Assembly (NCBI GenBank): GCA_031404395.1
Contig: JANNHN010000210.1
Location: forward strand, 1-24,156
Reading direction: 5' to 3'
DNA length: 24,156 nucleotides
DNA from: Betaproteobacteria bacterium
GTDB taxonomy: Bacteria; Pseudomonadota; Gammaproteobacteria; Burkholderiales; SG8-41
Below are positions 2,996-21,311 of this stretch, piece by piece (the first letter of the stretch is position 1; every line of letters starts with the position of its first letter). Under the pieces are notes generated by a model. That model saw nothing but the letters and a program-made list of their open reading frames with translations. It was not told the origin of the DNA and did no database searches. Made by a program: the position numbers and the translations under genes.

Positions 2996-3011
2996 GGCAC
3001 ATGCTCAATAA

Positions 3012-3075
3012 TCTCCCCTCTTCCATCGGGACAAGGGAACACTTGCCGCGAAGCAGAGGGGACGGGGGAGAGGGG
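3012..3075. repeat. REP-like palindromic element in the nuoF-nuoG spacer
   Basis: TCCCCTCT (3014-3021) pairs with AGAGGGGA (3055-3062); TCTCCCC (3012-3018) can alternatively pair with GGGGAGA (3065-3071). Resembles the CCCCTCTCCC...GGGAGAGGGG class of proteobacterial intergenic repeats. Confidence 0.55.
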
Positions 3076-3088
3076 CAATCGCATCGCG

Positions 3089-4402
3089 TTAGACATAGGG
3101 CGCGACCAGGCACTTCTTGTGGTCGATGTGATATTGGAATTCGTCACGGTAATGCTTGATGAACGCCCGCACCGGCATCGCTGCGGCATCCCCCAGCGCG
3201 CAGATCGTGCGGCCCTGGATGTTGTCGGCGACACGATTCAACTGGTCGAGGTCTTCGTTGCGGCCCTTGCCGTGCTCGATACGATCAACCATGCGGTAGA
3301 GCCAGCCGGTGCCCTCGCGGCAAGGGGTGCATTGACCGCAGGATTCCTCGTAATAGAAATAGGACAACCGCAGCAGCGACTTCACCATGCAGCGCGTCTC
3401 GTCCATGACGATCACCGCGCCGGAACCCAGCATTGATCCCGCCTTGGCAATCGAGTCATAGTCCATGTCGGTCGCCATCATGATGCTGGCCGGCAGCACC
3501 GGCATCGACGAGCCACCGGGAATCACCGCCTTGAGCTTGCGGCCATCACGCATGCCCCCCGCCATTTCCAGCAGCTTGGGGAACGGGGTGCCGAGCTTCA
3601 CCTCGAAGTTGCCGGGACGCGTCACGTCGCCCGACACCGAAAAAATCTTGGTGCCGCCGTTGTTCGGCTTGCCCATGTTGAGAAAAGCCTCGCCGCCGTT
3701 GATGATGATCCACGGCACAGCGGCAAAGGTTTCGGTATTGTTGATCGTCGTCGGCTTGCCGTAGAGGCCGTAGCTCGCCGGAAACGGCGGCTTGAAGCGC
3801 GGTTGACCCTTCTTGCCCTCGAGCGATTCCAGCAGCGCAGTTTCCTCGCCGCAGATGTAGGCGCCGAAGCCGTGGTGCCCGTGCAACTGGAACGAAAAAT
3901 CCGCGCCGAGGATTCTGTCGCCGAGGTAACCCGCGGCGCGCGCCTCGTCCAGCGCCTCTTCAAAACGTTCGACCACGTCCCACACCTCGCCGTGGATGTA
4001 GTTGTAACCCACGGTGATGCCCATGGCATAGCCGCCGATGATCATGCCTTCGATGAGGATGTGCGGGTTATAGCGCAGGATGTCGCGGTCCTTGAATGTG
4101 CCAGGCTCGCCTTCATCCGAATTGCACACCAGGTACTTCTGCCCCGGAAACTGCCGCGGCATGAAGCTCCATTTGAGCCCCGTCGGGAAGCCGGCTCCGC
4201 CGCGTCCGCGCAACGCGGATTTTTTCAGATCGTTGATGATCTGCTCGGGCGGAATTTTTTCGGCAATAATCTTCTTCAGCGCCGCATAACCGCCGCGCGC
4301 CTCGTAATCCTTCAGCCGCCAGTTAAGGCCGTTGACGCCCTTCATGATCAGGGCGTCCGGCCCGAACAGTTCGCCGGCAAAGGGCGGAATCGGCAGGCCC
4401 AT
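3089..4402 (-). CDS. nuoF: NADH-quinone oxidoreductase subunit F
   Basis: 437 aa. [43 protein letters not shown] and the N3 cluster motif [12 protein letters not shown]...TICALG. Confidence 0.98.
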
Positions 4403-4905
4403 TATCGGGAATCCCCTGACTTAAGCGTGCCGAGCAATTGATCAATTTTTTCCGGACTCATCGCACACAGCATCCGCTTGTTATTCTGCAGAATCACCGG
4501 TGCATCACCGCAGGCGCCCATACACTCGCCTTCCTTCAGCGTAAACCGGCCGTCAGGCGTGGTTTCACCGAAGCCGATGCCCAATACTTTTTTCAGATGC
4601 TGCGCAGCGCCGGTCGCGCCCTGCAGCGCGCACGGCAGGTTGGTGCAGATCGTCAGTTTGTATTTGCCGACCGGTTTCAGGTCGTACATGGTGTAGAACG
4701 TCGCCACTTCGTACACCGCCACCGGCGCCATGCCGAGATATTGCGCGACAAAATTCATGGTTTCCGTTGATAACCAGCCCTTCTCGTCCTGGGCGATGGT
4801 CAGCGCCGCCATCACCGCGGACTGTTTTTCAGTCGGCGGATACTTGGCGACGGCCTTGTCGATCCTGGCCAGTGATTCAGGTGACAGCATCAGGGGGGCG
4901 TTCAC
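4402..4905 (-). CDS. nuoE: NADH-quinone oxidoreductase subunit E
   Basis: Real gene is the 3' part of ORF 4402..5262. Start is GTG 4905 (GTGA overlap with the nuoD stop) or ATG 4890. Motifs EVATFYTMY and CTNLPC...[10 protein letters not shown] (2Fe-2S). Confidence 0.96.
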
Positions 4906-6155
4906 CGGTCGATCTCCCCGAACACGATGTCCTGCGTGCCGATGATCGCCACCACATCGGCGATCATGTGACCCCGCACCATTTCGTCCAGCGCCGCGAG
5001 ATGCGCAAAACCAGGTGCGCGGATTTTCAACCGGTACGGCTTGTTGGCGCCGTCGGATACCAGGTAAATGCCGAACTCGCCCTTGGGATGCTCCACTGCC
5101 GCATAAGCCTCGCCCGGCGGCACGTGCATGCCTTCGGTAAACAGCTTGAAGTGATGGATCAACTCTTCCATGTTGGTCTTCATCGCCACACGCGACGGCG
5201 GCGCCACCTTGTGGCTGTCGGCCATTACCGGGCCGGGATTCTTGCGCAGCCAGTCCACGCATTGCCGGACGATGCGATTCGACTGGCGCATTTCCTCAAT
5301 GCGCACCAGGTAGCGGTCGTAGCAGTCGCCGTTGACGCCCACCGGGATGTCGAATTCCATCCGGTCATACACTTCGTACGGTTGCTTCCTGCGCAGATCC
5401 CATTCGATGCCGGAACCGCGGAGCATCGCACCGGTGAATCCCAGCGACAATGCGCGCTCGGGTGAGACCACGCCGATACCCACTGTGCGCTGTTTCCAGA
5501 TGCGGTTGTCCGTCAGCAGCGTTTCGTATTCATCGACATACCCCGGAAAACGCCGGGTGAAGTCCTCGATGAAATCAAGCAGCGAGCCCTGGCGGTTTTC
5601 GTTCAATGTCCTGGTCGCCGCGGCGTTGTGGATGCGTGTAGCGGTGTACTGCGGCATGGTATCCGGCAGATCGCGATAAACCCCGCCCGGCCGATAGTAG
5701 GCTGCATGCATGCGCGCACCGGACACCGCCTCGTACATGTCGAACAGGTCTTCGCGCTCGCGGAAGCAATACAGGAATATCGTCATCGCGCCGATGTCCA
5801 GCCCGTGCGCCCCCAGCCACAGCAAGTGATTCAGCAACCGGGTAATTTCGTCGAATAGTACGCGGATGTACTGGGCGCGCTCGGGCACCTCGATCTCCAG
5901 CAGCTTCTCGATGGCCATCACGTAGGCATGTTCATTGGCCATCATCGATACGTAGTCCAGCCGGTCCATGTACGGCACCGACTGGAGGAAAGTTTTGTGT
6001 TCGGCGAGCTTTTCGGTCGCGCGGTGCAGCAGGCCAATGTGCGGATCGGCGCGCTCGATGACTTCGCCGTCGAGTTCCAGCACCAGGCGCAGCACGCCGT
6101 GGGCAGCCGGATGCTGGGGACCGAAGTTCATGGTGTAGTTCTTGATCTCAGCCAT
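4902..6155 (-). CDS. nuoD: NADH-quinone oxidoreductase subunit D
   Basis: 417 aa. [30 protein letters not shown] and C-terminal DIVFGEIDR. Confidence 0.98.
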
Positions 6156-6158
6156 GGA

Positions 6159-6773
6159 TCAACCCTTGCGGAACCCTTCGCTGTCCGCGTAATGCTCTTC
6201 GCGGACGATGCGCGGCGTGATCACGCGCGGCTCGATGGTGACCGGCTGGTAAATGACGCGTTGCTGATCGGGGTCGTAGCGCATTTCGACGTTGCCCGAC
6301 AGTGGAAAATCCTTGCGGAACGGATGACCAACAAAACCGTAATCGGTCAACAGGCGGCGCAGATCCGGATGCCCGGTGAACATGATGCCGTAGAGGTCAA
6401 ACGCTTCGCGCTCGTACCAGTTCGCCGATGACCACAGCCCGATCATCGACGCCACCACCGGAAAATCATCGTTCGGCGCAAACACGCGCAGCCGCACGCG
6501 CCAGTTGTGAGTAATGCTCAGCAGGTGGTAGACGACGGCAAAACGCGCGCCCTGCCAGGCGCCTTCACCATGATCGCTGTAATCCATCCCGCAAAGATCG
6601 ACCAGTTGCTCGAACCGCAGCGCCGCATCGTCGCGCAGGAACGCGCCGGCCGCCAGCAGGTGTTCGGCATTGACGACGACGGTCACTTCGCCCAGCGCCG
6701 TGTTGGCGCTGACCAGTTTGTCGCCGAGCGCGGTCTGCAGCGCGGCGGTCAGGATTTCGAGTCGATTGGCCAT
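6159..6773 (-). CDS. nuoC: NADH-quinone oxidoreductase subunit C
   Basis: [41 protein letters not shown] motif. Start placed at ATG 6773 (MANRLE) so it does not overlap nuoB. Confidence 0.96.
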
Positions 6774-6783
6774 GAAATTCCGG

Positions 6784-7275
6784 TCAGCGGGCAATCGTAT
6801 TGGTACGCTTGATCTTGTTCTGCAACTGGATGATGCCGTAGAGCAGCGCTTCCGCGGTCGGCGGACAGCCCGGCACGTAGATATCCACCGGCACGATGCG
6901 GTCGCAGCCGCGCACCACCGAATACGAATAATGGTAATAACCGCCGCCGTTGGCGCAGGAACCCATCGAAATCACCCAGCGCGGCTCGGCCATCTGGTCA
7001 TAGACCTTGCGCAGCGCCGGCGCCATCTTGTTGCACAGCGTGCCGGCAACAATCATCACGTCGGACTGGCGGGGGCTGGGGCGGAATACGATGCCGAAGC
7101 GGTCAAGATCGTAGCGCGAGGCACCGGCATGCATCATTTCCACGGCGCAGCAGGCAAGGCCGAAAGTCATCGGCCACAGTGAGCCGGTGCGCGTCCAGTT
7201 GACCAGCGAATCGACCGACGTGGTGATGAAGCCCCTGTCGTTGAGATTCTCGCTGATGGTTTCGATGGCGCCCAT
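6784..7275 (-). CDS. nuoB: NADH-quinone oxidoreductase subunit B
   Basis: [21 protein letters not shown] and [10 protein letters not shown] (N2 cluster ligands). Confidence 0.98.
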
Positions 7276-7289
7276 GAGTTACCTCTTTC

Positions 7290-7658
7290 TCATTCCCATT
7301 CCAGCGCCCCTTTTTTCCACTCATAGACAAAGCCCACGACCAGAATGGCGAGAAAAAGCATCATGGAAAAGAACCCGAACAGGCCGATTTCCTGCAACAC
7401 CACGGCCCACGGAAACAGGAATGCAATTTCAAGATCGAACAGGATGAACAGGATGGCAACGAGGTAATAACGTACGTCAAAGCGCATGCGTGCGTCTTCG
7501 AAGGCCTCGAAGCCGCATTCGTAGGGTGACAATTTCTGCTGATCGGGACGATGCGACCCGACGACGCGGCTGACGATCCAGCCTGCGGCAATCGGCGCGA
7601 CGCCAAAGGCCAGGCCGACGGCGATGAACATCAGAATCGGAAAGTAACCTTCCAGCAT
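7290..7658 (-). CDS. nuoA: NADH-quinone oxidoreductase subunit A
   Basis: [29 protein letters not shown] and [11 protein letters not shown]. Start placed at ATG 7658 (MLEGYFPIL). Confidence 0.97.
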
Positions 7659-7751
7659 CTGTTGCCTTTTGCGACATTTTCTGAACACCTTGCAGCCCGA
7701 CTTGCCGGCCGCCCCTGCACTGCCCCCTGCACCACTGTCCCGCTGTCAGCC

Positions 7752-9774: not shown

Positions 9775-10551
9775 TCAGGCCTGCTTCATACCCAGCACGC
9801 TGAAATACGCGTGGCTGCGTGTGGATACCCGGCGATGGCGCAATTCCACCGGTGTCCCGTCATAGGTGTATGCGACGCGTTCAATGGCGAGTACCGCCTC
9901 GCCCGCAGCGATCCCCAGCGCAGCAGCGAGTTTGCTGTCGGCATTGACCGCACGCACCCATTCCTCCACGCGGGTCACCGTGATGCCGAAACGCGTCTGG
10001 TAATAACCAAAGATGGTCATGCCGCGACGGCGAAACGCGGCCTCACGCAAATCAGGGAACACCGCTTGCGGCACCACCATCCGGTCAAAGATAACGGATT
10101 GATCCTGCAGAAACAGCAGGTTTTCAATGCGATACACCGGCGCGCCTCGCATAAGCTGCAGTCGCTGCGCCACGACAGCATCGGCCTTGCCGCGCCGGAA
10201 TGAGATGAGGCGGGTCTCCGGAAATTCCTTGCGCCCGGCGTCGTCAACGATGCGGAAATACGTATCCAGCATGTAATCCCGATTGCGGCTCGCGACAAAT
10301 GTCCCGCGCCCGCGCCGGCGCACCAGCACGCGCTCCGCAACCAGCTCACCGATGGCCTTGCGCACGGTACCCACGCTCACCGCGTAACGCCGCGCGAACT
10401 GGGATTCAGTCGGGATCGCGGCGCCCTGCGGCCACTCGCCCTCCATCAAGCTGCGCGTGATGCGTTTCTTGACCTCGGCGTACAGCGGGCCAGGCAATAC
10501 GCCGCCGGGATCCAGCGTCTCGTCCGCAGTGACTGCTAAATTATCCGGCAT
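9775..10551 (-). CDS. GntR-family (HutC/UTRA subfamily) transcriptional regulator
   Basis: wHTH PLYAEVK...IPTESQFARRYAVSVGTVRKAIGELV...RRRGRGTFV and a UTRA-like C-terminus (LAIERVAYTYDGTPVE). Divergent from the mutase operon. Confidence 0.92.
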   Translation of the reverse strand: MPDNLAVTADETLDPGGVLPGPLYAEVKKRITRSLMEGEWPQGAAIPTESQFARRYAVSVGTVRKAIGELVAERVLVRRRGRGTFVASRNRDYMLDTYFRIVDDAGRKEFPETRLISFRRGKADAVVAQRLQLMRGAPVYRIENLLFLQDQSVIFDRMVVPQAVFPDLREAAFRRRGMTIFGYYQTRFGITVTRVEEWVRAVNADSKLAAALGIAAGEAVLAIERVAYTYDGTPVELRHRRVSTRSHAYFSVLGMKQA

Positions 10552-10731
10552 GAGCCCTGTTGTTCATCGGGGTGGCATGAAAGTGGAATTGCATGAAACA
10601 GGCGGCGCCTCATGGCGCCAACCGGGCGCTTGTTGGTCTGGCAATCAATATATCAGGCGGCACACCAGACACCGCCGTATCTCCGGATCTTGCCGGGTTC
10701 TGGAGTCAGGCGTCGTAAAATAATTTATATT

Positions 10732-10744
10732 AATCAACAAGTTA
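10732..10744 (+). promoter_or_regulatory. Putative IHF binding site
   Basis: AATCAACAAGTTA is a perfect match to WATCAANNNNTTR, with an AT tract (TAAAATAATTTATATT) on its 5' side, in the divergent intergenic region. Confidence 0.6.
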
Positions 10745-10828
10745 TAATAATTCATCCGCTACCCGCATCAGGCAATGATGAATAAAAAACCTGCCTGCAG
10801 TCAATCAATTCATATAGATGAGATAGCT

Positions 10829-10857
10829 TTAATAGATAAGCTGGCATCCGCTACACT
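10829..10857 (+). promoter_or_regulatory. Putative sigma70 promoter of the mutase operon
   Basis: TTAATA (10829-10834), 17 nt, TACACT (10852-10857). RBS AAGGA at 10880-10884 precedes the GTG at 10890. Confidence 0.5.
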
Positions 10858-10889
10858 AATGCCCTGACTTAACGCCAATAAGGAACGTC

Positions 10890-11987
10890 GTGATCGAAAG
10901 TATTACCGTGTTCCGGCTGGCAGTACCGCTGACCAAACCCTATCGCCTCGCGTTCGGTGCAGTCGAACGCTACGACACGCTCATCGTTGAGATGACGGAT
11001 CGTGACGGTCGTCGCGGCCTCGGCGAAGCGACGGTGCTCACTGGCTACACCGACGAAACTATCGACGACTGCTGGCGCGTGGCGAGCGACATTGCGCAGA
11101 AACTCGCGGGCCGTGATCTGCAGGCTGCGCGCTCGCTGCTCCTGGCTCTGGCCGCAACCCATCCCTTCACCGCCACTGCATTCGGCACTGCTGTTGAAAT
11201 GATCGAGGGCAGCAGCTTTTTCGCAATAACGCAAAACACGCCCGTGCCGCTGGTCGGGCTGCTGGATGCCAAGGATGAAGCCGGCCTGCACGCCGAGGCC
11301 GACCGCCTGCTGGCGGAAGGCTACCGCACCTTCAAACTCAAAGTCGGCTTCAACGCCGCTGCCGATATTGAGAAAGTGCGCATGGCGCAACGGGCCGTGC
11401 GCGGTCGTGCCGCCCTTCGCATCGACGCCAATCAGGGTTACACCGCTGAGCAAGGCGTCGCATTCGTGCGCGCACTCGACCCTGCAGGCATAGAACTCTT
11501 TGAGCAGCCTTGCCCCGCCGGCGACTGGGAATCGCATCTCGCAGTAGCCAAAGCGGCCAGTGTGCCGCTGATGCTCGACGAATCGATTTACGGCATGGCC
11601 GATATCGAGAAAGCCGCCACACTGAAGTGCGCAACCTACATCAAACTAAAACTGATGAAGCTCGTCACGCTGGATGCATTGGCGCGCGCATTGGAACGTA
11701 TTCGCGAACTCGGCATGAAACCCGTACTCGGCAACGGTGTTGCCGCCGATCTGGGTTGCTGGCTGGAGAGCCTGGTCGCCGCGCGGCACATCGACAACGC
11801 CGGTGAACAGAACGGTTTTCTCAAGGCAAAAACACCGCTGCTGGCTGAGCCGCTGACTTTCGCAGACGGCGCACTGCAGCTCAAAGCGGGTTATGTGCCC
11901 CAACTCGATCCGGACCATATTGCCCGCTACCGCATCGATACGCTGACCTGCACGGCGCGCGGCGCCATCAAGGGAAGAGCGGCGTGA
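10890..11987 (+). CDS. Enolase-superfamily enzyme, muconate-lactonizing-enzyme (MLE) subgroup; function unknown
   Basis: 365 aa. Capping domain (GLGEA), KxK (TFKLKVG), metal ligands in RIDANQG / FEQP / MLDES, Lys in YIKLKLMK, and GEQNG at strand 8. Does not resemble methylaspartate ammonia-lyase. Confidence 0.88.
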   Translation: MIESITVFRLAVPLTKPYRLAFGAVERYDTLIVEMTDRDGRRGLGEATVLTGYTDETIDDCWRVASDIAQKLAGRDLQAARSLLLALAATHPFTATAFGTAVEMIEGSSFFAITQNTPVPLVGLLDAKDEAGLHAEADRLLAEGYRTFKLKVGFNAAADIEKVRMAQRAVRGRAALRIDANQGYTAEQGVAFVRALDPAGIELFEQPCPAGDWESHLAVAKAASVPLMLDESIYGMADIEKAATLKCATYIKLKLMKLVTLDALARALERIRELGMKPVLGNGVAADLGCWLESLVAARHIDNAGEQNGFLKAKTPLLAEPLTFADGALQLKAGYVPQLDPDHIARYRIDTLTCTARGAIKGRAA

Positions 11988-12976
11988 AAGCGGTCGCCAT
12001 CGCGAAATTCGGCGGCCCCGAGAATCTGCAATGGATGGATTGGCCCGACCCTGTGCCGGCCCAAGGCGAAGCGGTGGTCCGCCTCGATTACGCCGGCATC
12101 AATTTCATCGATATTTACATGCGCAGCGGCCATTACGCGCGCTCCCATACCTATCAGACGCCGCTGCCCATGACCATCGGCATGGAAGGCGGCGGCACCA
12201 TCGCCGCTCTGGGCGCAGATGTTAGCGGCTTCAAAATCGGTGACCGCGTTGCTTATTGCATCGTGCGCGGCAGCTACGCGCAATACGCGGCAGTGCCCGC
12301 GTGGAAACTCGTCAAGATTCCGGACGCCGTGCCGCTGCCGGTGGCCACGACTCTGATGCTCCAGGGCAACACTGCGCATTACCTCTCGCACTCGGCATTC
12401 CCGCTGGCGCCCGGCCATATTTGCCTGGTGCATGCCGGCGCAGGCGGCGTCGGACAACTGTTAATCCAGCTTGCCAAACTGCGTGGCGCGACCGTTATCA
12501 CTACAACAGGCAGCCGGGACAAAGCGGAAATCGCCAAACAGCGCGGCGCCGATCATGTCATCCTGTATCGCGATGTCGATTTCCGCGAGGAAGTCATGAA
12601 CATCACCGGCGGCAAAGGCGTCGATGTGGTCTATGACGCTGTCGGCAAGGACACCATCCACAACAGCATCCGCAGTCTGAGAAAACGCGGACTGTGCGTG
12701 AACTACGGCGGCGCCTCGGGGCTGGTGCAATCGATTGAGCCACTGGAGCTAGCCGAAGCCGGATCGGTATTTTTCACGCGTCCGCACCTTGCCGACTACA
12801 TAGGCACCTCTGAAGAATTGAACGCGCGCGCAGCGGACCTGTTTGCGGCTTACACCGCAGGCAAACTCACCGTCGCCATCGACCGCGAATTTGCACTTGC
12901 CGATGCGGCGGCAGCGCACCGCCATCTCGAAGGCCGCGGCACGCGCGGCAAACTGCTGCTCAAGATGACTCACTGA
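11984..12976 (+). CDS. Zeta-crystallin/quinone-oxidoreductase-like NADPH-dependent MDR oxidoreductase
   Basis: GINFIDIYMRSG, LVHAGAGGVGQLL, GVDVVYDAVG and LEGRGTRGKLLL; no Zn ligands. GTGA overlap with the upstream gene. Confidence 0.9.
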   Translation: MKAVAIAKFGGPENLQWMDWPDPVPAQGEAVVRLDYAGINFIDIYMRSGHYARSHTYQTPLPMTIGMEGGGTIAALGADVSGFKIGDRVAYCIVRGSYAQYAAVPAWKLVKIPDAVPLPVATTLMLQGNTAHYLSHSAFPLAPGHICLVHAGAGGVGQLLIQLAKLRGATVITTTGSRDKAEIAKQRGADHVILYRDVDFREEVMNITGGKGVDVVYDAVGKDTIHNSIRSLRKRGLCVNYGGASGLVQSIEPLELAEAGSVFFTRPHLADYIGTSEELNARAADLFAAYTAGKLTVAIDREFALADAAAAHRHLEGRGTRGKLLLKMTH

Positions 12977-13422
12977 TGACCACCAAACCAAAAACACTCG
13001 TTACCGGCGTCATCGGTTCTGACACCCACATCGTCGGCAACCGCATACTGTCGATGGCACTGGAAAAATCCGGCTACAAAGTGGTCGCGCTGGGCGCCCT
13101 CACCCCTTCCACTGACTTCGTGAAAGCTGCGGTTGAAACCGCCGCCGACGCCATCATGGTGTCCTCCCTCTACGGCCAGGGCGAACTCGATTGCCGCGGC
13201 TTCCGCGAATTGTGCATCGAGGCAGGACTCGACGACATCCTGCTCTACGTCGGCGGCAACCTGATTGTCGGCAAACATCCGTGGCCCACGGTAGAAAAAA
13301 TATTCCTCGACATGGGTTTCGACCGTGCAGCAGCACCCGGCACGCGCGCAGAGACCGTGGCTGAGTGGCTCAACAGGGATTTTGCCGCGCGCGCGCAAGG
13401 CCTGCACCGCGCGCCGGACTAG
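12976..13422 (+). CDS. glmS: Glutamate/methylaspartate-mutase-type B12-binding (sigma) subunit (also called MutS/MamA)
   Basis: GVIGSDTHIVGN (DxHxxG base-off/His-on motif), VSSLYGQGELDC and LLYVGGNLIVGK closely match clostridial GlmS as I recall it. TGATG coupling with the upstream gene. Confidence 0.95.
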   Translation: MTTKPKTLVTGVIGSDTHIVGNRILSMALEKSGYKVVALGALTPSTDFVKAAVETAADAIMVSSLYGQGELDCRGFRELCIEAGLDDILLYVGGNLIVGKHPWPTVEKIFLDMGFDRAAAPGTRAETVAEWLNRDFAARAQGLHRAPD

Positions 13423-13442
13423 TGCCTGTTAACAACCATCCC

Positions 13443-14855
13443 ATGAGCGCCGCGCTGCTGATCGACTTTGGATCGACCTACACCAAGCTGCGTGCCATTG
13501 ACCTCGCCGCGCGCAGCGTACTGGGTGCGGGTCAGGGTCCATCCACCGTGACGACCGACATCACCATCGGCATGAAAGCCGCACTCGCCGATCTCGAGCG
13601 GCACCTGGGTGGCCTGCCAAAGTTCAAGTATCGCCTCGCCTCCAGCAGCGCTGCCGGGGGCTTGCGCATGGTGACCGTGGGACTGGTGCGCGAACTCACC
13701 ACCGAAGCGGCGCGGCGTGCGGCGCTGGGCGCGGGCGCCAAACTTGTCGGCACCTTCGCCTATCGCCTCACAACCGCAGATATCAATAAAATCAATATGT
13801 TATCTCCGGATATCCTGTTGCTGGCCGGCGGCACTGACGGCGGCAACAGCGAAGTAATCATTGCCAACGCCAAAAGTCTGGGACGCGCCGCCTTCAACTG
13901 CCCCATTGTTTACGCCGGCAACCGCGCCGCCGAAGAAGACGCCTGCGCTGCGCTCTCAGGCAAAACGGTGATTGTCGCCGAGAACGTCATGCCGGAATTC
14001 AATGTGCTCAACATCGAGCCGGCGCGCGCGGCCATCCGTCGGATATTCATCGACCGCATTGTCCATGCCAAAGGCATAGACCGCGCACAGGCGGATTTCG
14101 ACGCGGTGCTGATGCCCACGCCGGCCGCCGTCATGGAGGGCGCGCGACTCGTCGCCGACGGCATAGACGGGCGCGGCGGACTGGGGCCTCTGCTCATCGT
14201 CGATCCGGGCGGCGCCACAACCGACGTGCATTCGGTTGCCGACGGTGAACCCGCAGAGAACGCCGTCGCCGTCGGTTTGCCGGAGCCGCGCGTGAAGCGT
14301 ACCGTTGAAGGCGACCTTGGCATGCGCCACAACGCGGCCACCATCGCCGAGGTCGCAGGACTTGACCACATCGCAGCCGATGCGGGACTGAAACCAGAGC
14401 GCGCCTCAGCACTTCTCTCCGCAATCGCCCGCGACGTGGAGCGACTACCGCAGACCACGGAAGAAATCGCACTGGATCTGGCGCTGGCGCGCGCTGCCGT
14501 GAAACATGCCGTCGCCCGCCACTGCGGCACAGTAGAAACGGTGCATACCGTCCACGGCGCGGTCATCGTCCAGCACGGCAAGGATCTGAGCCGCATCAGC
14601 GCCGTCATCGGCACCGGCGGAGCCATCGTCTCCAGCAGCGATCCGTACGCGGTGCTGATGATGACGCTTGCCAATCCGGAATCGCCGTTGTCACTGCGAC
14701 CCAAATCGCCGCGTCTGTTGCTCGACCGTCATTACCTGCTCTACGCTTGCGGCTTGCTGAGTACCGCGGATCCGCAGGCTGCACTGGAACTGGCAACCAA
14801 CCACCTCGAACCGCTCACTGAGGAGAAGCCCCATGAACGCGCCCACTGCGCCTGA
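13443..14855 (+). CDS. glmL: Glutamate-mutase accessory protein GlmL/MutL (actin-like ATPase, putative reactivating factor)
   Basis: From ATG 13443: LLIDFGSTYTK, SSAAGGLRM, DILLLAGGTDGGN, DPGGATTDVHS and KRTVEGDLGMR; lies between the S and E subunits. Confidence 0.92.
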   Translation: MSAALLIDFGSTYTKLRAIDLAARSVLGAGQGPSTVTTDITIGMKAALADLERHLGGLPKFKYRLASSSAAGGLRMVTVGLVRELTTEAARRAALGAGAKLVGTFAYRLTTADINKINMLSPDILLLAGGTDGGNSEVIIANAKSLGRAAFNCPIVYAGNRAAEEDACAALSGKTVIVAENVMPEFNVLNIEPARAAIRRIFIDRIVHAKGIDRAQADFDAVLMPTPAAVMEGARLVADGIDGRGGLGPLLIVDPGGATTDVHSVADGEPAENAVAVGLPEPRVKRTVEGDLGMRHNAATIAEVAGLDHIAADAGLKPERASALLSAIARDVERLPQTTEEIALDLALARAAVKHAVARHCGTVETVHTVHGAVIVQHGKDLSRISAVIGTGGAIVSSSDPYAVLMMTLANPESPLSLRPKSPRLLLDRHYLLYACGLLSTADPQAALELATNHLEPLTEEKPHERAHCA

Positions 14856-16323
14856 CGCAGCAACCCGCCTCCCGCTCTCCGAAACATCAATCCCTGACGA
14901 TGTGTTCCACACCATGCGCCAGGAAAACCTGGCGCGCTGGCCGACCGGAGCAGATGTGGATTTCGACGCGGCTGTCGAGCGCCACCGGACACTGCCCAAG
15001 CACAAGCAACTGGCGTGGGTGATGCGCGAAGCTGACCGCCAACGGCGCTGTCTCACCCAGCCGCGCGGCGGCTGCGCCACCTTCGAGATGCACCGCGCCC
15101 TCATGATCGCGCTCGACCGCGAAGGACTCGCCGACGTGGTGCCGACGACGACCGACAGCTATACGCGCAACGAACAATGGCAACTCGCACAACAAGGCAT
15201 CGATGAATCCGAGAAGGCTGGTCGTTCGCTGCTGAACGGCTATCCGATGGTGAACTACGGCGTCGCAAAAGCGCGCGCGCTGGTGGATGCCATCGACAAA
15301 CCCGCCATCATGCTGACCGGCACTTCCATGCCCAAACTGACCGGTGAAATCGGCTACGCCGGCGGTTACTCGGGTTATCTGGGATCAGGCATTGCCTACA
15401 CCACTTCCTATATCAAGGAACTCACGATCGAGGAAGGCATCCGCAATTACCAGTATCTCGATCGTCTGGTGGCGATGTATCAGGCGCATGGCGTCGAGCT
15501 CCACCGCCGGCAGCCGGGCTTTCTCACCGGCACCAACATTCCGCCTTCAATCGCCATCATCACCTGCGTGCTCGACTGCCTGCTTGCCGCGGGGCAAGGC
15601 GTGAAGAACTACGGACTGGAAATGGGCGAAACGATGCACCTCATCCAGGATGCCGCCGCAGTCGCCGCCTGCCGGGAGCTGTGCCAGGAATATCTCGTGA
15701 AAAAGGGATACCACGATGTATTCACGCCCATCACGCTGCTGCACTGGATGGGCGCCTGGCCGCAGGACGACGCGCAAGCGGCGGCGATCATCAGTTACGG
15801 CGGCACGCTCGCCGCGATTGCCGGCGCGAACAGCGTAACCACCAAGAGCACGCATGAAGCCTATGGCATCCCGACGCCGCAGGCGAACGCGGAAGGTCTG
15901 CGCACGACGCGCACGGCAATCTATCTCGCGCGCAACATCCGGCTCGACTCCATGCCTGAATTCCAGACGGAAAAAGATCTCATCAAGCGTGAAGCCCGGG
16001 CGATACTCGACAAGACGCTGGAAATGGGCGACGGCGATGCGGCCATCGGCACGGTGCGCGCCTTCGAGGCCGGCGTACTCGATGTTCCGTGGTCGCCCAA
16101 CCGCCATGTCAAAAGCCGCGTCATGCCGGCACGTGATATCGACGGCTATCTCCGTATCGTCGACCCCGGGCTTATGCCGTTCCCGAAGGACGTCATGGAA
16201 ATCCATGAAGAACGGCTCCGGCTGCGCGCCGAAAAAGAAGGCGTGGAGTACGGCCATGATCTCGCCGTCTCCAGTGTCTATGAAATGGCGGAGCCGATTG
16301 CGAAACTGCTGCCGGACAAATGA
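14833..16323 (+). CDS. glmE: Glutamate-mutase-like catalytic (epsilon) subunit with a divergent substrate pocket
   Basis: 496 aa. WPTG, QPRGG, DSYTR, ESEKAGRSLLNGYP, LTGT, HWMG, KSTHEA and GTVRAFEAGVLDVP are colinear with clostridial GlmE. RBS AGGAGA; 23-nt overlap with glmL. Confidence 0.93.
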   Translation: MNAPTAPDAATRLPLSETSIPDDVFHTMRQENLARWPTGADVDFDAAVERHRTLPKHKQLAWVMREADRQRRCLTQPRGGCATFEMHRALMIALDREGLADVVPTTTDSYTRNEQWQLAQQGIDESEKAGRSLLNGYPMVNYGVAKARALVDAIDKPAIMLTGTSMPKLTGEIGYAGGYSGYLGSGIAYTTSYIKELTIEEGIRNYQYLDRLVAMYQAHGVELHRRQPGFLTGTNIPPSIAIITCVLDCLLAAGQGVKNYGLEMGETMHLIQDAAAVAACRELCQEYLVKKGYHDVFTPITLLHWMGAWPQDDAQAAAIISYGGTLAAIAGANSVTTKSTHEAYGIPTPQANAEGLRTTRTAIYLARNIRLDSMPEFQTEKDLIKREARAILDKTLEMGDGDAAIGTVRAFEAGVLDVPWSPNRHVKSRVMPARDIDGYLRIVDPGLMPFPKDVMEIHEERLRLRAEKEGVEYGHDLAVSSVYEMAEPIAKLLPDK

Positions 16324-16357: not shown

Positions 16358-17317
16358 ATGAACTTACTGATGAAGGGGCTGGTCCTGATTTTCGTCGCCG
16401 GCTGCGCGCCGGTGCTGGCACAAACGTATCCAACGAAACCGGTGCGCATGGTAATCGGCTTCCCGCCCGGCGGCGGCACCGACATCATCGGCCGCATCGT
16501 CGCGCAGAAACTGGCCGAGGGACTGGGGCAGCAGGTCATCGTCGATAATCGCGGCGGCGCCAGCGGCCAGATTGCCGCTGATCTGGTCGCCAAGTCCCCG
16601 CCCGACGGCCACACGGTGATGATGGCGCATATCGGCGCCATGTCCATCCTGCCGTCGCTGTACCCGAAACTGCCCTACGATCCGGTGCGGGATTTTGCGC
16701 CGATCAGCCTGGTCGCAACCAGCCCCAATCTGGTGGTCGTACATCCATCGCTGCCGGTCAAGAACATCAAGGAATTGATCGCCCTCGCCAAGGCGCGTCC
16801 CGACCAATTGCATTACGCATCGCCGGGGGCAGGCCTGGTACAGCATCTCGCAGGCGAACTGTTCAACCTGCGCGCGAAGGTGAAAATAGTTCACGTTCCG
16901 TACAAGGGCGCCGGCCCTGCCATCGTCGACCTCATCGCCGGCCATGTACAGCTGAGCTTCGATGTGATACCGGCAGCACTTCCCTACGTCAAATCCGGAA
17001 GATTGCGCGCGGTGGCGGTCACCGGCGAAAAACGCACTGCCCTGCTGCCGGATATACCGACCATCAGCGAAAGCGGACTCCCCGGTTTCGATCTTGCCAC
17101 CTGGTGGGGGCTGGTCGCGCCGGCGGCGGTCAACAAAAACATCATCGGGCGTCTGCACGCCGAGACCGTAAAGCTGCTGCCCGGCGTCAAGGATCGCATC
17201 GCCAACGCCGGAGCGGATATCGTGGGCAATTCGCCCGCGGAGTTTGCAGCCTACATACAATCAGAGCGCGAGAAGTACGCGCGCATCGTCAAGGAAGCCA
17301 ACATCAAGATCGATTAG
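16358..17317 (+). CDS. Bug/TctC-family tripartite tricarboxylate transporter substrate-binding protein
   Basis: Signal peptide followed by YPTKPVRMVIGFPPGGGTD, DNRGGASG, HVPYKGAGPA and W-x-G-L-x-A-P; strong RBS AAAGGAGG. Confidence 0.93.
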   Translation: MNLLMKGLVLIFVAGCAPVLAQTYPTKPVRMVIGFPPGGGTDIIGRIVAQKLAEGLGQQVIVDNRGGASGQIAADLVAKSPPDGHTVMMAHIGAMSILPSLYPKLPYDPVRDFAPISLVATSPNLVVVHPSLPVKNIKELIALAKARPDQLHYASPGAGLVQHLAGELFNLRAKVKIVHVPYKGAGPAIVDLIAGHVQLSFDVIPAALPYVKSGRLRAVAVTGEKRTALLPDIPTISESGLPGFDLATWWGLVAPAAVNKNIIGRLHAETVKLLPGVKDRIANAGADIVGNSPAEFAAYIQSEREKYARIVKEANIKID

Positions 17318-17409: not shown

Positions 17410-18825
17410 TCAGATCACCCGGATATTCTTGAATTGCCAGGGATCCGAGGTATCCAGATCTTCCGGGAACGGATGGTTGCGGCCCTGCAGCGGCGTCCAG
17501 TCCGAATACGCGCCGACCATCGTGCCGAGATACGGCGCCGCAATTTCCAGTACTCGCCGGAAATCCATGTCGTCCGGATCAATGATGCCGGCGTGTGGAT
17601 TTTCCATGGCCCAGATCACTGCGCCGACTACCCCCGCGGCCACTTGCAGACTGGTCGCATTGTTGTATGGTGCCAGCTTGCGCGCCTCGTGGATCGACAG
17701 CTGCGAACCATACCAGTACGCACCCTTCTTGTGGCCGAGCAGCAACGCGCCCAGTTCATCAGTGCCGTCGGTAATCTCGTCGCGGTACAGCCGCCGTTGT
17801 TCCTGACCCACCCAATGGCGACCCGCAAGTTCATGCACCGACAGCACCGTGTCGTCGCAGGGATGATAGGCATAGTGGCAGGTCGGGCGGTACACCACCC
17901 GGTCGCCGTCGCGCACGGTCAGGTAATCAGATATCGAAATTGCCTCGCCGTGCGTAATCAGAAAACCGTGGAATGCACCCTCGTTGGGCGTCCAGGTGCG
18001 CACGCGCACCGACGCGCCGGGACGATTCAGATAAATCGCCGCCTTGCAGCCAAAATCATGCTCGCGGCCTTCCGGCGGAAAATATTTCTCGTGGCTGCCC
18101 CAACCCAGTTCGCAGGGCTGCGAGCCTTCCCCGATAAAACCGTCCACGGACCAGGTATTCACAAACTCGCCGCGCCGCTTGCGCGGTGAAGCCACCTGGG
18201 TGTCGCGCTCCGAGCAATGAATGCTCTTCACGCCGAGTTCCATGGCCAGTTGCCCCCAGCCGGATTTCGACTGCGGGATATCCGTGCGACCGAGGATGTC
18301 CTGCGAGAGATTGACCAGCGCCTGCTTGACCCAGTGCGAAATCAGGCCGGGATTGGCGCCATGCGTGGGAATGACGGTCGGACCCGCAGGAAATTTCTTG
18401 CGCAACCCCAGCACTTCCTCACGCTGCCCGTAGTTGGAGCGGCGCGACGCCGATACCGACTGATCCGTGTATCCGCCGGCCCACGGCTCAATGCACGAAT
18501 CGAGGTAAAGCACGCCTTTTTCACAGCAGAATTCGATCAGCGCAGAACTCGCCACATCGACCGACAGATTGATCAGGAAATCGCCGCGATCCAGCCGCGA
18601 ATCAAGGATCGCGCGGAAGTTCTCGCGCGTGAGCGGGTTTATTTCGTAACGAATGCCGAACGACTCGGCCTCGGCACGGCCGCGATCATGCCCGGTAATG
18701 ATCGAAATCCGCTCTTTCGGCATGTCGATATGGCGCAGCAACAGCGGCAGAACGCCCTGCGCGACCGAACCGAAGCCGACGAAAACAATGTTTCCCGCGA
18801 ATTTGAAGTGCTTTTTATCTGCCAT
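17410..18825 (-). CDS. hss: Homospermidine synthase
   Basis: 471 aa. Rossmann motif VGFGSVAQG, YLDSCIEPW, HGANPGLISH, EFVNTWSVDGF, YRPTCHYAYHPC and NATSLQV. Confidence 0.93.
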   Translation of the reverse strand: MADKKHFKFAGNIVFVGFGSVAQGVLPLLLRHIDMPKERISIITGHDRGRAEAESFGIRYEINPLTRENFRAILDSRLDRGDFLINLSVDVASSALIEFCCEKGVLYLDSCIEPWAGGYTDQSVSASRRSNYGQREEVLGLRKKFPAGPTVIPTHGANPGLISHWVKQALVNLSQDILGRTDIPQSKSGWGQLAMELGVKSIHCSERDTQVASPRKRRGEFVNTWSVDGFIGEGSQPCELGWGSHEKYFPPEGREHDFGCKAAIYLNRPGASVRVRTWTPNEGAFHGFLITHGEAISISDYLTVRDGDRVVYRPTCHYAYHPCDDTVLSVHELAGRHWVGQEQRRLYRDEITDGTDELGALLLGHKKGAYWYGSQLSIHEARKLAPYNNATSLQVAAGVVGAVIWAMENPHAGIIDPDDMDFRRVLEIAAPYLGTMVGAYSDWTPLQGRNHPFPEDLDTSDPWQFKNIRVI

Positions 18826-19237: not shown

Positions 19238-20662
19238 ATGTCTGCAGTTGAAGTACCGTCCACCTCCGCCGCAGTGCAAACCGTCTCTGCACTGGTTGCA
19301 CGCGCACGCAAAGCGCAGGCTGCAATCACGCACTACACGCAGACGCAGCTCGATGAGCTGGTCACTGCGTCCGGCTGGGCGATCATGGAACCTGCGCGCA
19401 ACAAATTACTGGCCGAAATTGCCGTGCGCGACACCGGCCTCGGCAACGTCGAAGACAAAATCACCAAAAATCACCGCAAGACACTGGGCCTGCTGCGCGA
19501 CCTGCAGGGCGCCATCTCCACCGGCATACTCGCCGAGCTGCCGGAACTGGGCATCACCGAGATCGCGCGGCCGGTCGGTGTGGTTGCCGCTGTCGTGCCT
19601 TCAACCAATCCCGGCGCGACACCCGCCAACAATATCATCAACGCGCTGAAGTGCGGCAATGCCGTCATTCTGTCGCCCTCGCCCAAGGGTTACTCGACGG
19701 CGGCGAAACTGCTGGAATTCATTCATGCCGAATTCGCGCGCATCGGCGCGCCGACCGATCTGGTGCAGACCCTGCCGCATCCGGTCACCAAGGAAAGCTC
19801 CAGCGAGTTGATGAAGCAGTGTGATCTGGTGGTCGTCACCGGTTCGCAGGCCAATGTGCGCGCGGGTTACTCCAGCGGCACGCCGGCGCTGGGCGTGGGC
19901 GCGGGCAATGTCGCGGTGATCGTTGACGACAGCGCCGACTGCGGGGACGCGGCGCAGAAAATCATGCACTCGAAGATTTTCGACAATGCGACGAGTTGCT
20001 CGTCGGAAAACAGTGTCATCATCGATGCCGCGGTTTACGAGCGCATGCTCAAGGCGTTGACCGCAGCCGGCGGCGCGTTGCTGACCGTGGCGGAAAAAGA
20101 AACCCTGCAGAAAACCATGTTCCCCGGCGGCAAACTGTCGCCGGCAGTGACCGCGCAATCCGTAGGCAGAATCTGTGCGGTAGCCGGACTGACGCGCCCC
20201 GAACTCGTCAACGCCAAATGCCTGATGGTCGAGGAATCCGGCACCGGCAAAGCCGCGCCGTTCTCCGGCGAGAAACTGTCACCCGTGCTGACCATTTACA
20301 AAGCGCGTGATTTCGACCACGCGTTTGCCACGCTGCGCGCCATCTACGACTATCAGGGCGACGGCCACTCCTGCGGCATCCACACCACGAACAACGAACA
20401 CATTCGCCGGCTGGGCATGGAAATGACCGTCTGCCGCGTCATCGTCAACCAGGCCCACGCCATCGCCAACGGCGGCAGCTTCGACAACGGCCTGCCGTTC
20501 TCGCTGACCATGGGTTGCGGCACCTGGGGCGGCAACAGTTTTTCCGAGAACCTGAATTACCGGCACTTCATGAACACCACGCGCATCGTGCGTCCCATCC
20601 CGCCGCGCGAGCCGTCTCCCGAAGACATCTTCGGCGCGTACCGCCGGAAATACGGCGCGTGA
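19238..20662 (+). CDS. sauS: CoA-acylating aldehyde dehydrogenase, sulfoacetaldehyde dehydrogenase (SauS)-like
   Basis: WAIMEPARN, KNHRKTLGLLRDL, PSTNPGATPA, catalytic FDNATSCSSENS, PFSGEKLSPVL and NGLPFSLTMGCGTWGGN closely match Cupriavidus SauS as I recall it; paired with a SauT-like ligase. Confidence 0.8.
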   Translation: MSAVEVPSTSAAVQTVSALVARARKAQAAITHYTQTQLDELVTASGWAIMEPARNKLLAEIAVRDTGLGNVEDKITKNHRKTLGLLRDLQGAISTGILAELPELGITEIARPVGVVAAVVPSTNPGATPANNIINALKCGNAVILSPSPKGYSTAAKLLEFIHAEFARIGAPTDLVQTLPHPVTKESSSELMKQCDLVVVTGSQANVRAGYSSGTPALGVGAGNVAVIVDDSADCGDAAQKIMHSKIFDNATSCSSENSVIIDAAVYERMLKALTAAGGALLTVAEKETLQKTMFPGGKLSPAVTAQSVGRICAVAGLTRPELVNAKCLMVEESGTGKAAPFSGEKLSPVLTIYKARDFDHAFATLRAIYDYQGDGHSCGIHTTNNEHIRRLGMEMTVCRVIVNQAHAIANGGSFDNGLPFSLTMGCGTWGGNSFSENLNYRHFMNTTRIVRPIPPREPSPEDIFGAYRRKYGA

Positions 20663-20708: not shown

Positions 20709-21311
20709 ATGAACCCGAACAAAAGCATCGATTTCTTCGAAACACAGTTCCGCAAGCAGGTTGCAGCCGGCGATTTTGCGCTGAACCCGTTCGAGACGGC
20801 CTGCCTGCCCTTCGTGCACGGACGCGTACTGGATTTCGGTTGCGGGCTGGGCAACCTGGCGATCACAGCGGCGCGCCGCGAGCTGGACGTAGTGGCTGTC
20901 GACGCGAGCGAGGCCGCGATCGCGCGTATCAGGAAGACCGCGACGGCTGAACGTCTCCGGATCGACGCGCAATGCGCCGAGATCGGCGGTTACATCATCT
21001 CCGGGCAGTTTGACACCATTGTCGCCATCGGCTTGCTGATGTTCTTCCCGCGGGAAAACGCGCTCGGGTTGCTGTCGCAGATACAGGCACACGTCACTGA
21101 TGGCGGCACGGCGATCGTCAACACGCTGACGGAGGGCACCACCTACATGGGCATGTTCGAACCGGGCCATTACCATCTCTTCGGCAAGAACGAATTGCGG
21201 GATCTGTTCGCAGGCTGGAAGGTTCTGCACTTCGCACACGATAATTTCACCGCACCAGAGGGCGCCACGAAGGCATTCGCGACCATCATCGCGCAGAAGA
21301 ACAATCCCTGA
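20709..21311 (+). CDS. Class I SAM-dependent methyltransferase (TehB-like)
   Basis: 200 aa. VLDFGCGLGN, VVAVDAS, FDTIVAIGLLMF and GGTAIV. Confidence 0.85.
   Translation: MNPNKSIDFFETQFRKQVAAGDFALNPFETACLPFVHGRVLDFGCGLGNLAITAARRELDVVAVDASEAAIARIRKTATAERLRIDAQCAEIGGYIISGQFDTIVAIGLLMFFPRENALGLLSQIQAHVTDGGTAIVNTLTEGTTYMGMFEPGHYHLFGKNELRDLFAGWKVLHFAHDNFTAPEGATKAFATIIAQKNNP

Follow-up and report, generated by a model that had tools for sequence, protein, structure and literature searches.

Introduction

Methylaspartate ammonia-lyase (MAL) is an enolase-superfamily enzyme that deprotonates the product of a B12-dependent mutase alpha to a carboxylate, and its gene adjoins glmS, glmL and glmE in clostridia and enterobacteria. 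We noticed that an equivalent genomic niche is occupied by a protein of a different subgroup in a 24,156-nucleotide stretch of DNA from a Betaproteobacteria bacterium (assembly GCA_031404395.1, contig JANNHN010000210.1, positions 1 to 24,156; hereafter the window). This protein, referred to here as ENO, is encoded at positions 10890-11987 of the plus strand, belongs to the muconate-lactonizing enzyme (MLE) subgroup of the enolase superfamily and, in contrast to MAL, is accompanied by a mutase that cannot hold the amino end of glutamate. Together, ENO and the mutase probably operate in a new B12-dependent pathway, in which the candidate reactions assigned to ENO from its sequence and gene context lie between elimination and epimerization.

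Four other groups of described enzymes can be compared with ENO. The dipeptide epimerases and the N-succinyl-Arg/Lys racemase (1jpm/1tkk, 3rit, 3jva, 3q45, 2p88) have the fold, the KxK motif, the Asp/Glu/Asp ligands and the strand-6 Lys in common with ENO, and the 20s loops are also alike (PLTKPYRLAF in ENO vs. PLTRPYRIAF in 3rit). In dipeptide epimerases, a DxD motif at strand 8 binds the ammonium group. The identity of ENO to these epimerases is, however, only about 20-30%; its strand 8 reads N-A-G-E-Q-N-G instead of DxD, its strand 7 reads G-N-G-V-A instead of G-S/C-M-x-E, and its genomic partners are a B12 mutase or a dioxygenase rather than peptidases or murein-recycling genes. The muconate and chloromuconate cycloisomerases (1muc, 1nu5, 3dg3) are of the same subgroup and match ENO structurally over the full length (TM 0.82-0.85). 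ENO has an acidic residue 52 residues past its strand-6 Lys, and the equivalent spacing in the MLE of P. putida is presumably 54 (K273 to E327). In contrast to the cycloisomerases, no catechol or beta-ketoadipate genes are found near ENO.

The other two groups are functional analogs. The pairing of methylmalonyl-CoA epimerase with its mutase shows that an epimerase can supply a stereospecific B12 carbon-skeleton mutase, but this epimerase has an unrelated fold (VOC superfamily) and acts on CoA thioesters, whereas a free carboxylate bound by ENO would need Mg2+-stabilized enediolate chemistry. The (R)-sulfolactate sulfo-lyase SuyAB and other desulfonating lyases catalyze the same overall reaction that is proposed below for ENO (i.e., alpha-proton abstraction and beta-elimination of sulfite), and the sulfite exporter gene TauE is co-located in both cases; SuyAB is not known to be a member of the enolase superfamily. 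Our literature search found no description of an enolase-superfamily enzyme associated with a glutamate-mutase-like enzyme or with sulfonate catabolism.

ENO Constitutes a Family of Its Own in the MLE Subgroup

The 365-residue translation of positions 10890-11987 contains K149-L-K151, D179, E205, D230 (followed by E231), K252-L-K254 and G305-E306-Q307-N308-G309. When aligned by HMMER with the L-Ala-D/L-Glu epimerase of B. subtilis (1jpm), the ENO motifs FKLKVG, RIDANQG, ELFEQP, LMLDES and IKLKLMK paired with their 1jpm equivalents: K149/K151 and K254 corresponded to KIKVG and NIKLMK, and D179/E205/D230 to RLDANQG, ELVEQP and MADES. We take the paired 1jpm motifs to be the KxK, Asp, Glu, Asp and strand-6 Lys of that enzyme. 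An AlphaFold2 model of ENO (pLDDT 87.7, pTM 0.87) placed the catalytic residues at the C-terminal ends of strands 2 (147-152), 3 (175-180), 4 (201-205), 5 (227-229) and 6 (250-253). The first-pass annotation, made from the DNA letters and their open reading frames (ORFs), had proposed the two KxK lysines, the three metal ligands, the strand-6 Lys and the GEQNG motif at strand 8, and the translation, the alignment and the model recovered all of them at the proposed places, strand 8 with low confidence.

Comparison of 80 orthologues (62 mutase-linked and 18 other; 49-82% identity) revealed that K149/K151, D179, E205, D230, K254, G305, E306, N308 and G309 were invariant; Q307 was variable and mostly Met in a 24-sequence alignment. 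As all of the named residues but Q307 are invariant in these orthologues, their presence is beyond chance. The same 80 sequences (orthologues with at least 49% identity) defined an ENO-family signature that consists of P17-Y18-[RK]19, T51-G-Y-T54, N181-Q182, Y234 and M256-K257, followed in the C-terminal part by G281-N-G-V-A285, C290-W291, E293, N303-A-G-E306-x-N308-G309 and K312. The ENO of the window has the full signature. The two-domain fold, with an alpha+beta capping domain and a modified TIM barrel, was found by Pfam (MR_MLE_C, 2e-30; MR_MLE_N, 1e-5), in the model and by Foldseek (TM 0.79-0.86 to MLE-subgroup structures). Fold, Pfam matches and the full catalytic set thus bear out the membership in the MLE subgroup that had been proposed. 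Judged from sequence, ENO is a Mg2+-type enolase-superfamily enzyme of the MLE subgroup with its own conserved family in about 300 species.

This family is separate from those already characterized. The scores of ENO against o-succinylbenzoate synthase (OSBS) models (TIGR01927, TIGR01928, PRK02714, PRK05105) were 101.8 vs. a cut-off of 130.55 (menC), 87.2 vs. 200.65, 80.3 vs. 259, and 71 vs. 236, and no men genes were seen among the annotated ORFs of the window. Similarly, ENO scored 100.9 vs. 334.95 for muconate/chloromuconate cycloisomerase (TIGR02534), 88.9 vs. 500 and 40.9 vs. 343 for the L-Ala-D/L-Glu (dipeptide) epimerase models, and 70.6 vs. 400 for the N-acetyl-D-Glu racemase DgcA (NF042940); the MAL models TIGR01502, PF07476 and PF05034 were not among its Pfam and NCBIfam matches. 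With all of these cut-offs missed, ENO does not cluster with a characterized OSBS, dipeptide epimerase or MLE family, and the first-pass annotation holds on this point as well. Assignments to OSBS, muconate cycloisomerase, dipeptide epimerase, DgcA, hydroxyproline dehydratase and MAL were all rejected, as their models were either matched below the cut-off or not matched. In profile searches, the dipeptide epimerases and the N-succinyl-Arg/Lys racemase matched at 6e-33 to 1e-27 and the muconate cycloisomerases at about 1e-22. By Foldseek, the identity of ENO to solved structures is 20-26%, with epimerases, racemases and cycloisomerases about equally distant, and no close solved structure was found (best match, 26% identity). 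At E ≤ 1e-30, ENO matched 300 clusters of a library of 1.84 billion representatives, and these formed a continuum from 53% identity down. More than 120 relatives have at least 60% identity to ENO; the names that homologues bear, if any, are automatic labels only, such as "L-Ala-D/L-Glu epimerase" and "o-succinylbenzoate synthase".

Distribution of ENO and Its Linkage to a B12-Dependent Mutase

In a scan of one genome per species, 302 ENO-encoding stretches were confirmed. The best 80 of them and the window were combined into a set of 81 loci, in which all ORFs were clustered and annotated with Pfam. Judged by their record titles, the carriers among the best 80 are mostly uncultured Betaproteobacteria, Burkholderiales and Casimicrobiaceae, and include one isolate, Pelomicrobium sp. 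G1 (orthologue at L048:204-1250). It should be noted that the titles of eight records (L002, L016, L020, L042, L047, L054, L063, and L074) include Streptomycetaceae, Enterobacteriaceae, Chitinophaga, Bordetella parapertussis and Acidobacteria despite a Burkholderiales-type cluster; these organism labels are probably wrong.

Neighbors within 10 kb of ENO were counted in the 32 well-flanked loci, which have at least 6 kb on each side. Mutase genes were found in 30 of the 32. Genes of a tripartite tricarboxylate transporter (TTT) uptake system were nearly always present (29/32), a medium-chain dehydrogenase/reductase (MDR) gene was usually present (23/32), and the gene for SauS, a CoA-acylating sulfoacetaldehyde dehydrogenase, was found in 14. 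A glutamate-mutase-like B12 enzyme is encoded in the same transcript or cluster as ENO, and three gene orders occur: ENO-MDR-glmSLE, glmSLE-ENO-MDR, and ENO-glmSLE-MDR. Because the gene order varies, selection on the linkage between ENO and the mutase is more likely than inherited synteny. The variation also limits the earlier description of ENO as the first gene of the set, which is correct for the window but not for the loci with the order glmSLE-ENO-MDR.

We further examined a sample of 151 genomes of the window's bacterial family (the family sample), whose tallies take in the unpublished genomes G017 and G153; none of our specific claims depends on these two by themselves. ENO orthologues with at least 51% identity were found in 34 of these genomes, plus one partial copy, and the variant GlmE described below in 19; both were found in 16 genomes and GlmE only in 2-3. 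In a quick tree (SH-aLRT support only, midpoint root), the ENO copies without a mutase formed two clades nested among the mutase-linked copies, and their active-site signature was unchanged.

The Partner Mutase and the Missing MAL

In glutamate mutase, R66, R149 and E171 hold the migrating glycyl group, while R100 and Y177 hold the acrylate part (PMC10947579). An ungapped alignment of the GlmE-like subunit with GlmE of C. cochlearium (1cb7_B) revealed that R66, R100, Y177 and Y181 were kept, while R149, H150 and E171 were replaced by Leu161, Thr162 and Leu183, respectively. Leu was found at the positions of R149 and E171 in all 50 readable ENO-linked GlmE copies, 48 of which read R/R/L/T/L/Y/Y over the seven positions. 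Given that the glycyl-binding residues are replaced and the acrylate-binding residues are kept, the substrate of this mutase would retain the -CH2-CH2-COO- half and have a different, non-amino migrating group. The partner mutase is thus, by its pocket sequence, not a glutamate mutase; its glycyl-binding half is rebuilt and its acrylate-binding half is kept.

Canonical MAL was not found in the window's own metagenome-assembled genome (83% complete) or in five relatives with genomes of 3.2-6.8 Mb, and a PF07476 scan of the window's own genome gave sub-threshold matches only, on other contigs. The same model detected MAL in 20 of the 151 family-sample genomes, which served as a positive control. 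Of the 19 genomes with the variant mutase, five contained MAL, never on the mutase contig. A canonical MAL encoded elsewhere in the genome was therefore rejected as the enzyme of the lyase step, as it is absent from 14 of these 19 genomes and never linked. About 13 of the 20 MAL genomes had no GlmE-like gene at E ≤ 1e-60, i.e., MAL also occurs without a detectable mutase.

Further GlmE-like paralogues with 33-39% identity were noticed in the same bacterial family at loci L088-L094 (genomes G016, G137, G140, G095, G067, G041, and G119). Most have GlmS/GlmL-like genes beside them, all are next to TctC genes, and none has ENO nearby. Each has its own set of residues at the seven pocket positions of glutamate mutase (RRRSPMH, RRRT-GY, RRRTTFY, YRRITYY, GRASLQH, RRRSLHH, and QRDNTQH), and Glu171 is kept in none. 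From these sequences, the paralogues seem to have radiated into free-acid B12 mutases that differ in substrate.

Organization of the Window and Recurrent Neighboring Genes

The features of the window are as follows, with recurrence given for the 81 loci.

3-7688, minus strand: nuoH-A
Between nuoH-A and the GntR gene: tpiA, then a small methyltransferase gene
9775-10551, minus strand: GntR/UTRA-family regulator gene (by family match), divergent from ENO; near ENO in 16/81 loci
10552-10889: AT-rich control region that separates the divergent GntR and ENO genes; includes the AGGA ribosome-binding site of ENO and, on each strand, promoter-like hexamers (consensus matches only)
10890-11987, plus strand: ENO, MLE-subgroup enolase-superfamily enzyme (K149/K151, D179, E205, D230, K254, E306)
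11984-12976, plus strand: MDR reductase of the Qor/zeta-crystallin type; in 46/81 loci
12976-13422, plus strand: GlmS-like B12-binding subunit
13365-14855, plus strand: GlmL-like accessory (reactivase-type) protein
14833-16323, plus strand: GlmE-like catalytic subunit with altered pocket
16358-17317, plus strand: TctC/Bug-type periplasmic binding protein of a TTT system; ends the co-directional set
17410-18825, minus strand: saccharopine-dehydrogenase-family gene (471 aa)
19238-20662, plus strand: SauS-like CoA-acylating sulfoacetaldehyde dehydrogenase (745 bits vs. cut-off 600); in 24/81 loci
20709-21311: TehB-like SAM methyltransferase, between the SauS-like gene and the ligase
21332-22840, plus strand: AMP-forming acyl-CoA ligase in a SauT-like position; recurs in 15/81 loci
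Downstream of the CoA ligase: AcrB gene, part only

ENO, MDR, the GlmS-, GlmL- and GlmE-like genes and TctC thus form one co-directional set on the plus strand. The start codon of ENO is GTG, 7 nt past AGGA, and the ENO stop and MDR start overlap at 11984-11987. Because the family match of the GlmL-like ORF begins near residue 30, its true start is probably downstream of 13365. The best solved relatives of MDR are Qor of M. tuberculosis and the 2-haloacrylate reductase 1wly (2e-70). A TctC2 type of binding protein (e.g., L022:12135-13121) is commoner than the TctC of the window.

Several other genes recur beside ENO. The sulfoacetaldehyde acetyltransferase gene Xsc (932 bits vs. cut-off 676) was found in 11/81 loci, and the number of arrangements in which Xsc and SauS are adjacent far exceeds what chance would give for single-copy genes. 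CoA ligases of the AMP- or ADP-forming types recur near ENO, as do genes of short-chain dehydrogenases/reductases (SDR; 13-15/81), TauD-family dioxygenases (10/81), Sdh-like flavoprotein, cytochrome b and Fe-S proteins (5-6/81), biotin carboxylase (6/81), class-I fumarase-type hydratase subunits (4/81), the TauE sulfite exporter (3/81; L007, L011, and L050) and a lyase of the phosphoenolpyruvate (PEP)-mutase/isocitrate lyase (ICL) family (1/81). Among proteins of solved structure, the TauD-like protein is closest to the enantiospecific (R)-phenoxypropionate dioxygenases (RdpA; 9e-39). In L059, the genes Xsc-ENO-MDR-glmSLE-tctCBA-SDR-SauS lie on a single strand, and L010, L018 and L025 have the order ENO-MDR-glmSLE-TauD-SDR. 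L007 contains an 11-gene run of biotin carboxylase-carboxyltransferase-TauE-glmSLE-ENO-MDR-tctCBA, in which the carboxyltransferase beside the biotin carboxylase was confirmed as PYC_OADA and TauE is directly upstream of glmS on the same strand; neither Xsc nor SauS was found in this locus. In L073, the fumarase-type hydratase subunits and the PEP-mutase/ICL-family lyase are beside ENO-glmSLE, and in L026 the stop of the flavoprotein gene overlaps the ENO start. Collectively, the recurrent neighbors make a sulfonated carboxylate the likely substrate.

The Sdh-like set (Fe-S, cytochrome b, flavoprotein) was found inside the ENO/mutase operon at L026:2043-5266, L023, L052, L069 and L073:15053-19286, and is interleaved with class-I fumarase-type subunits in three loci. 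This combination suggests an oxygen-independent dehydrogenation-plus-hydration route, parallel to the TauD-like hydroxylase of other loci. Methyltransferase genes also recur beside ENO: the one at L073:9354-10016 overlaps the ENO start, and another type (e.g., L024:18423-19196) occurs in five loci. The saccharopine-dehydrogenase-family gene has no NCBIfam match, adjoins the cluster in 12 loci and is directly downstream of MDR on the same strand in L056, L063 and L079. Its product may be homospermidine-synthase-like and the gene only syntenic. This gene and the small methyltransferase gene were not retained as pathway members; lineage synteny with dapA, bamC and tpiA is more likely.

An ENO paralogue with about 42% identity was found in small islands of TctC, the paralogue, GntR and a TauD-like dioxygenase (L084:8938-10110; L085:8706-9725; L086:8709-9755, minus strand; L097:8334-9374). 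It differs from ENO at G23R, T51A, Y53S, Q182R, Y234R, M256K, N282D, N303G and E306D, of which G23R, Q182R, Y234R and M256K add basic residues to the pocket.

Discussion

Given the MLE-subgroup membership of ENO, its linkage to the mutase, the altered mutase pocket and the absence of MAL from most of the variant-mutase genomes, it is a well-founded reading that ENO performs acid/base chemistry on what the mutase takes up or releases, a non-amino compound in either case. As to the reaction, we tentatively favor, at somewhat less than an even chance, a MAL-like beta-elimination lyase that possibly releases sulfite. The logic would be that of the methylaspartate pathway: the mutase would shift an alpha-substituent that cannot be eliminated to the position beta to the carboxylate. 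K151 or K254, together with the metal, would then take the proton alpha to the carboxylate of the branched mutase product X-CH(COO-)-CH(CH3)-COO-, or of a shorter analog, and the enediolate would expel the beta substituent X, as MAL does after the true glutamate mutase. The resulting enoate could then pass to MDR for reduction or, in the clusters that have the fumarase-like enzyme, be hydrated. From the gene context, X would most likely be a sulfonate that leaves as sulfite, with hydroxide also possible. Such a lyase would account for the transporter, mutase and ENO as the conserved core, for the translational coupling of ENO and MDR, and for TauE in an operon that has no other source of sulfite. 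The rebuilt mutase pocket, the tight linkage and the lack of MAL in 14 of the 19 variant-mutase genomes are all consistent with the functional analog of MAL for a non-amino acid that the first-pass annotation had envisaged, while the beta-elimination itself is our inference. The lactone or paraconate chemistry that it had offered among the possible reactions receives no support from the gene neighborhood, which points instead to sulfonate chemistry, a possibility that this annotation had not raised here.

A more specific version of this proposal, which we consider rather unlikely as it stands, is that ENO represents the enolase superfamily's first desulfonating (C-S) lyase and that ENO and the mutase form an oxygen-independent sulfo-analog of the methylaspartate pathway. 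A candidate route would convert 2-sulfoglutarate to 3-methyl-2-sulfosuccinate and then to mesaconate and sulfite, or would follow the same scheme from 2-/3-sulfopropanoate. The substrate candidates 2-sulfoglutarate, 2-/3-sulfopropanoate, 4-sulfobutanoate, 2-methyleneglutarate and 2-hydroxyglutarate each agree with some of the evidence; identification of the substrate by the mutase pocket alone was given up, as several candidates fit in part and none fits all.

Several observations weigh against a desulfonating, MAL-like lyase. The closest characterized relatives of ENO are 1,1-proton-transfer enzymes (1jpm, 6e-33; N-succinyl-Arg/Lys racemase 2p88, 8e-33), and although E306 is at the short eighth-strand position in the model, the mean pLDDT of residues 301-310 is just 57. 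ENO occurs without the variant GlmE in 18 of the 34 ENO-bearing genomes of the family sample, and no GlmE-like gene was found in five ENO-bearing genomes of 5-6 Mb that were searched directly. Conversely, locus L087 (G056:C20), from the window's genus, has tpiA, the methyltransferase gene, GntR, MDR-glmSLE-tctC, the saccharopine-dehydrogenase-family gene and SauS-ligase as in the window but lacks ENO, with a GntR-MDR gap of only 246 bp and no ENO remnant, and L096 contains glmSLE without ENO or MDR. Obligate linkage of ENO and the mutase is thus ruled out in both directions, and mutase operons without ENO are odd if ENO is an essential lyase of the pathway. It is not obvious how the two Leu residues of the mutase pocket would bind a sulfonate, and loss of sulfite at the ENO step would leave the neighboring SauS, Xsc and CoA ligase without a role. 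Furthermore, Xsc passes the cut-off in 106 of the 151 family-sample genomes; as a genome-wide test for sulfonate use it is uninformative, and only physical adjacency carries weight.

Several of these points would be explained if ENO is an epimerase or racemase, a close alternative that we rate only a little lower than the lyase. K151 and K254, on opposite faces, would invert the configuration at the carbon next to the carboxylate in an alpha-substituted (e.g., alpha-sulfo or 2-methyl) acid, and so supply the right stereoisomer to the B12 mutase or, in genomes without the mutase, to the RdpA/TauD-like dioxygenase. MDR would precede this step and produce a single enantiomer through reduction of a 2-substituted acrylate, in the manner of 2-haloacrylate reductase. 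Because of the epimerase relatives of ENO, the mutase operons without ENO and the mutase-less ENO beside an RdpA/TauD-like dioxygenase, an accessory epimerase fits about as well as a lyase. The nearest characterized relatives of ENO are the dipeptide epimerases and the N-succinyl-amino-acid racemase; ENO is dispensable in the otherwise identical sister-genome locus L087 and in L096; in mutase-less genomes it persists beside a TauD-family gene, and its active-site signature does not change; and the paralogue of about 42% identity is found in the minimal TctC/paralogue/GntR/TauD-like islands. The kinship of the TauD-like protein with the enantiospecific (R)-phenoxypropionate dioxygenases (9e-39) also speaks for an epimerase. 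Epimerization would also leave the downstream role to SauS, Xsc and the ligases. The minimal conserved set of transporter, mutase and ENO (L048, L049, L051, and L055) would, however, only isomerize its substrate, with no catabolic gain, and TauE would be inside an operon without another sulfite-forming enzyme. A racemase is also puzzling for a mutase that makes a single stereoisomer, and the lysine pair gives no preference for racemization, given that it is common to all reactions of the MLE subgroup.

The remaining alternatives are less probable. ENO could be an allylic isomerase or cycloisomerase acting on a C6 methylene diacid, with the mutase serving as a 2-methyleneglutarate mutase of the glutamate-mutase type. 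In place of 3-methylitaconate delta-isomerase, ENO would abstract the C3 hydrogen and reprotonate the methylene carbon to give dimethylmaleate, or it would open or close a paraconate-type lactone, and the hydratase and ICL-family lyase would then yield propionate and pyruvate. A pi-bond at C2 eases the radical shift, as in 2-methyleneglutarate mutase, and with its Glu at strand 8 ENO resembles MLE; both of these, the two Leu residues in place of Arg149 and Glu171, which suit a =CH2 group, and the gene set of L073 speak for such an isomerase. It is nevertheless improbable, as the hydratase occurs in only 4/81 loci and the lyase in 1/81, MDR, TauE, SauS, Xsc and the TauD-like and Sdh-like genes would have no role, aerobic Burkholderiales have no evident source of methyleneglutarate in their environment, and the mutase-less genomes would be unexplained. 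In ordinary glutamate catabolism, 3-methylaspartate would still be the product of the mutase, and ENO would serve either as a non-orthologous replacement of methylaspartate ammonia-lyase or as an epimerase of 3-methylaspartate. Such catabolism agrees with the scores of GlmS, GlmL and GlmE above the NCBIfam methylaspartate-mutase cut-offs (459 vs. 390 for GlmE), and the chemistry would be within reach given that MAL itself is of the enolase superfamily. We consider it very improbable, since Glu171, which hydrogen-bonds the glycyl amine, and the claw residue Arg149 are Leu in 50/50 readable linked copies, ENO lacks the acidic DxD pair with which dipeptide epimerases bind ammonium groups, and the neighbors are sulfonate and dicarboxylate genes rather than those of glutamate fermentation. 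Finally, that ENO is an OSBS, dipeptide epimerase, muconate cycloisomerase or N-acetyl-D-Glu racemase placed beside the mutase by chance, as the automatic names of its homologues would have it, is hardly credible: every curated cut-off was missed, the identity to any solved structure is 20-26%, and the mutase linkage holds over three gene orders.

The enolase superfamily is a textbook case of deducing function from sequence and genome context, to which the ENO family would add a new reaction or substrate class. The variant mutase would likewise extend the short list of free-acid B12 mutases. According to a 2026 review, the mechanism by which 3-sulfopropionate is degraded in Bilophila wadsworthia remains unclear (PMC12890257), and the 2-/3-sulfopropanoate version of the pathway, if true, could explain the fate of this compound. 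The carriers of ENO are abundant soil and groundwater Burkholderiales, and if the substrate is indeed a sulfonate, ENO and its mutase would constitute a new means of breaking or repositioning C-S bonds without oxygen.

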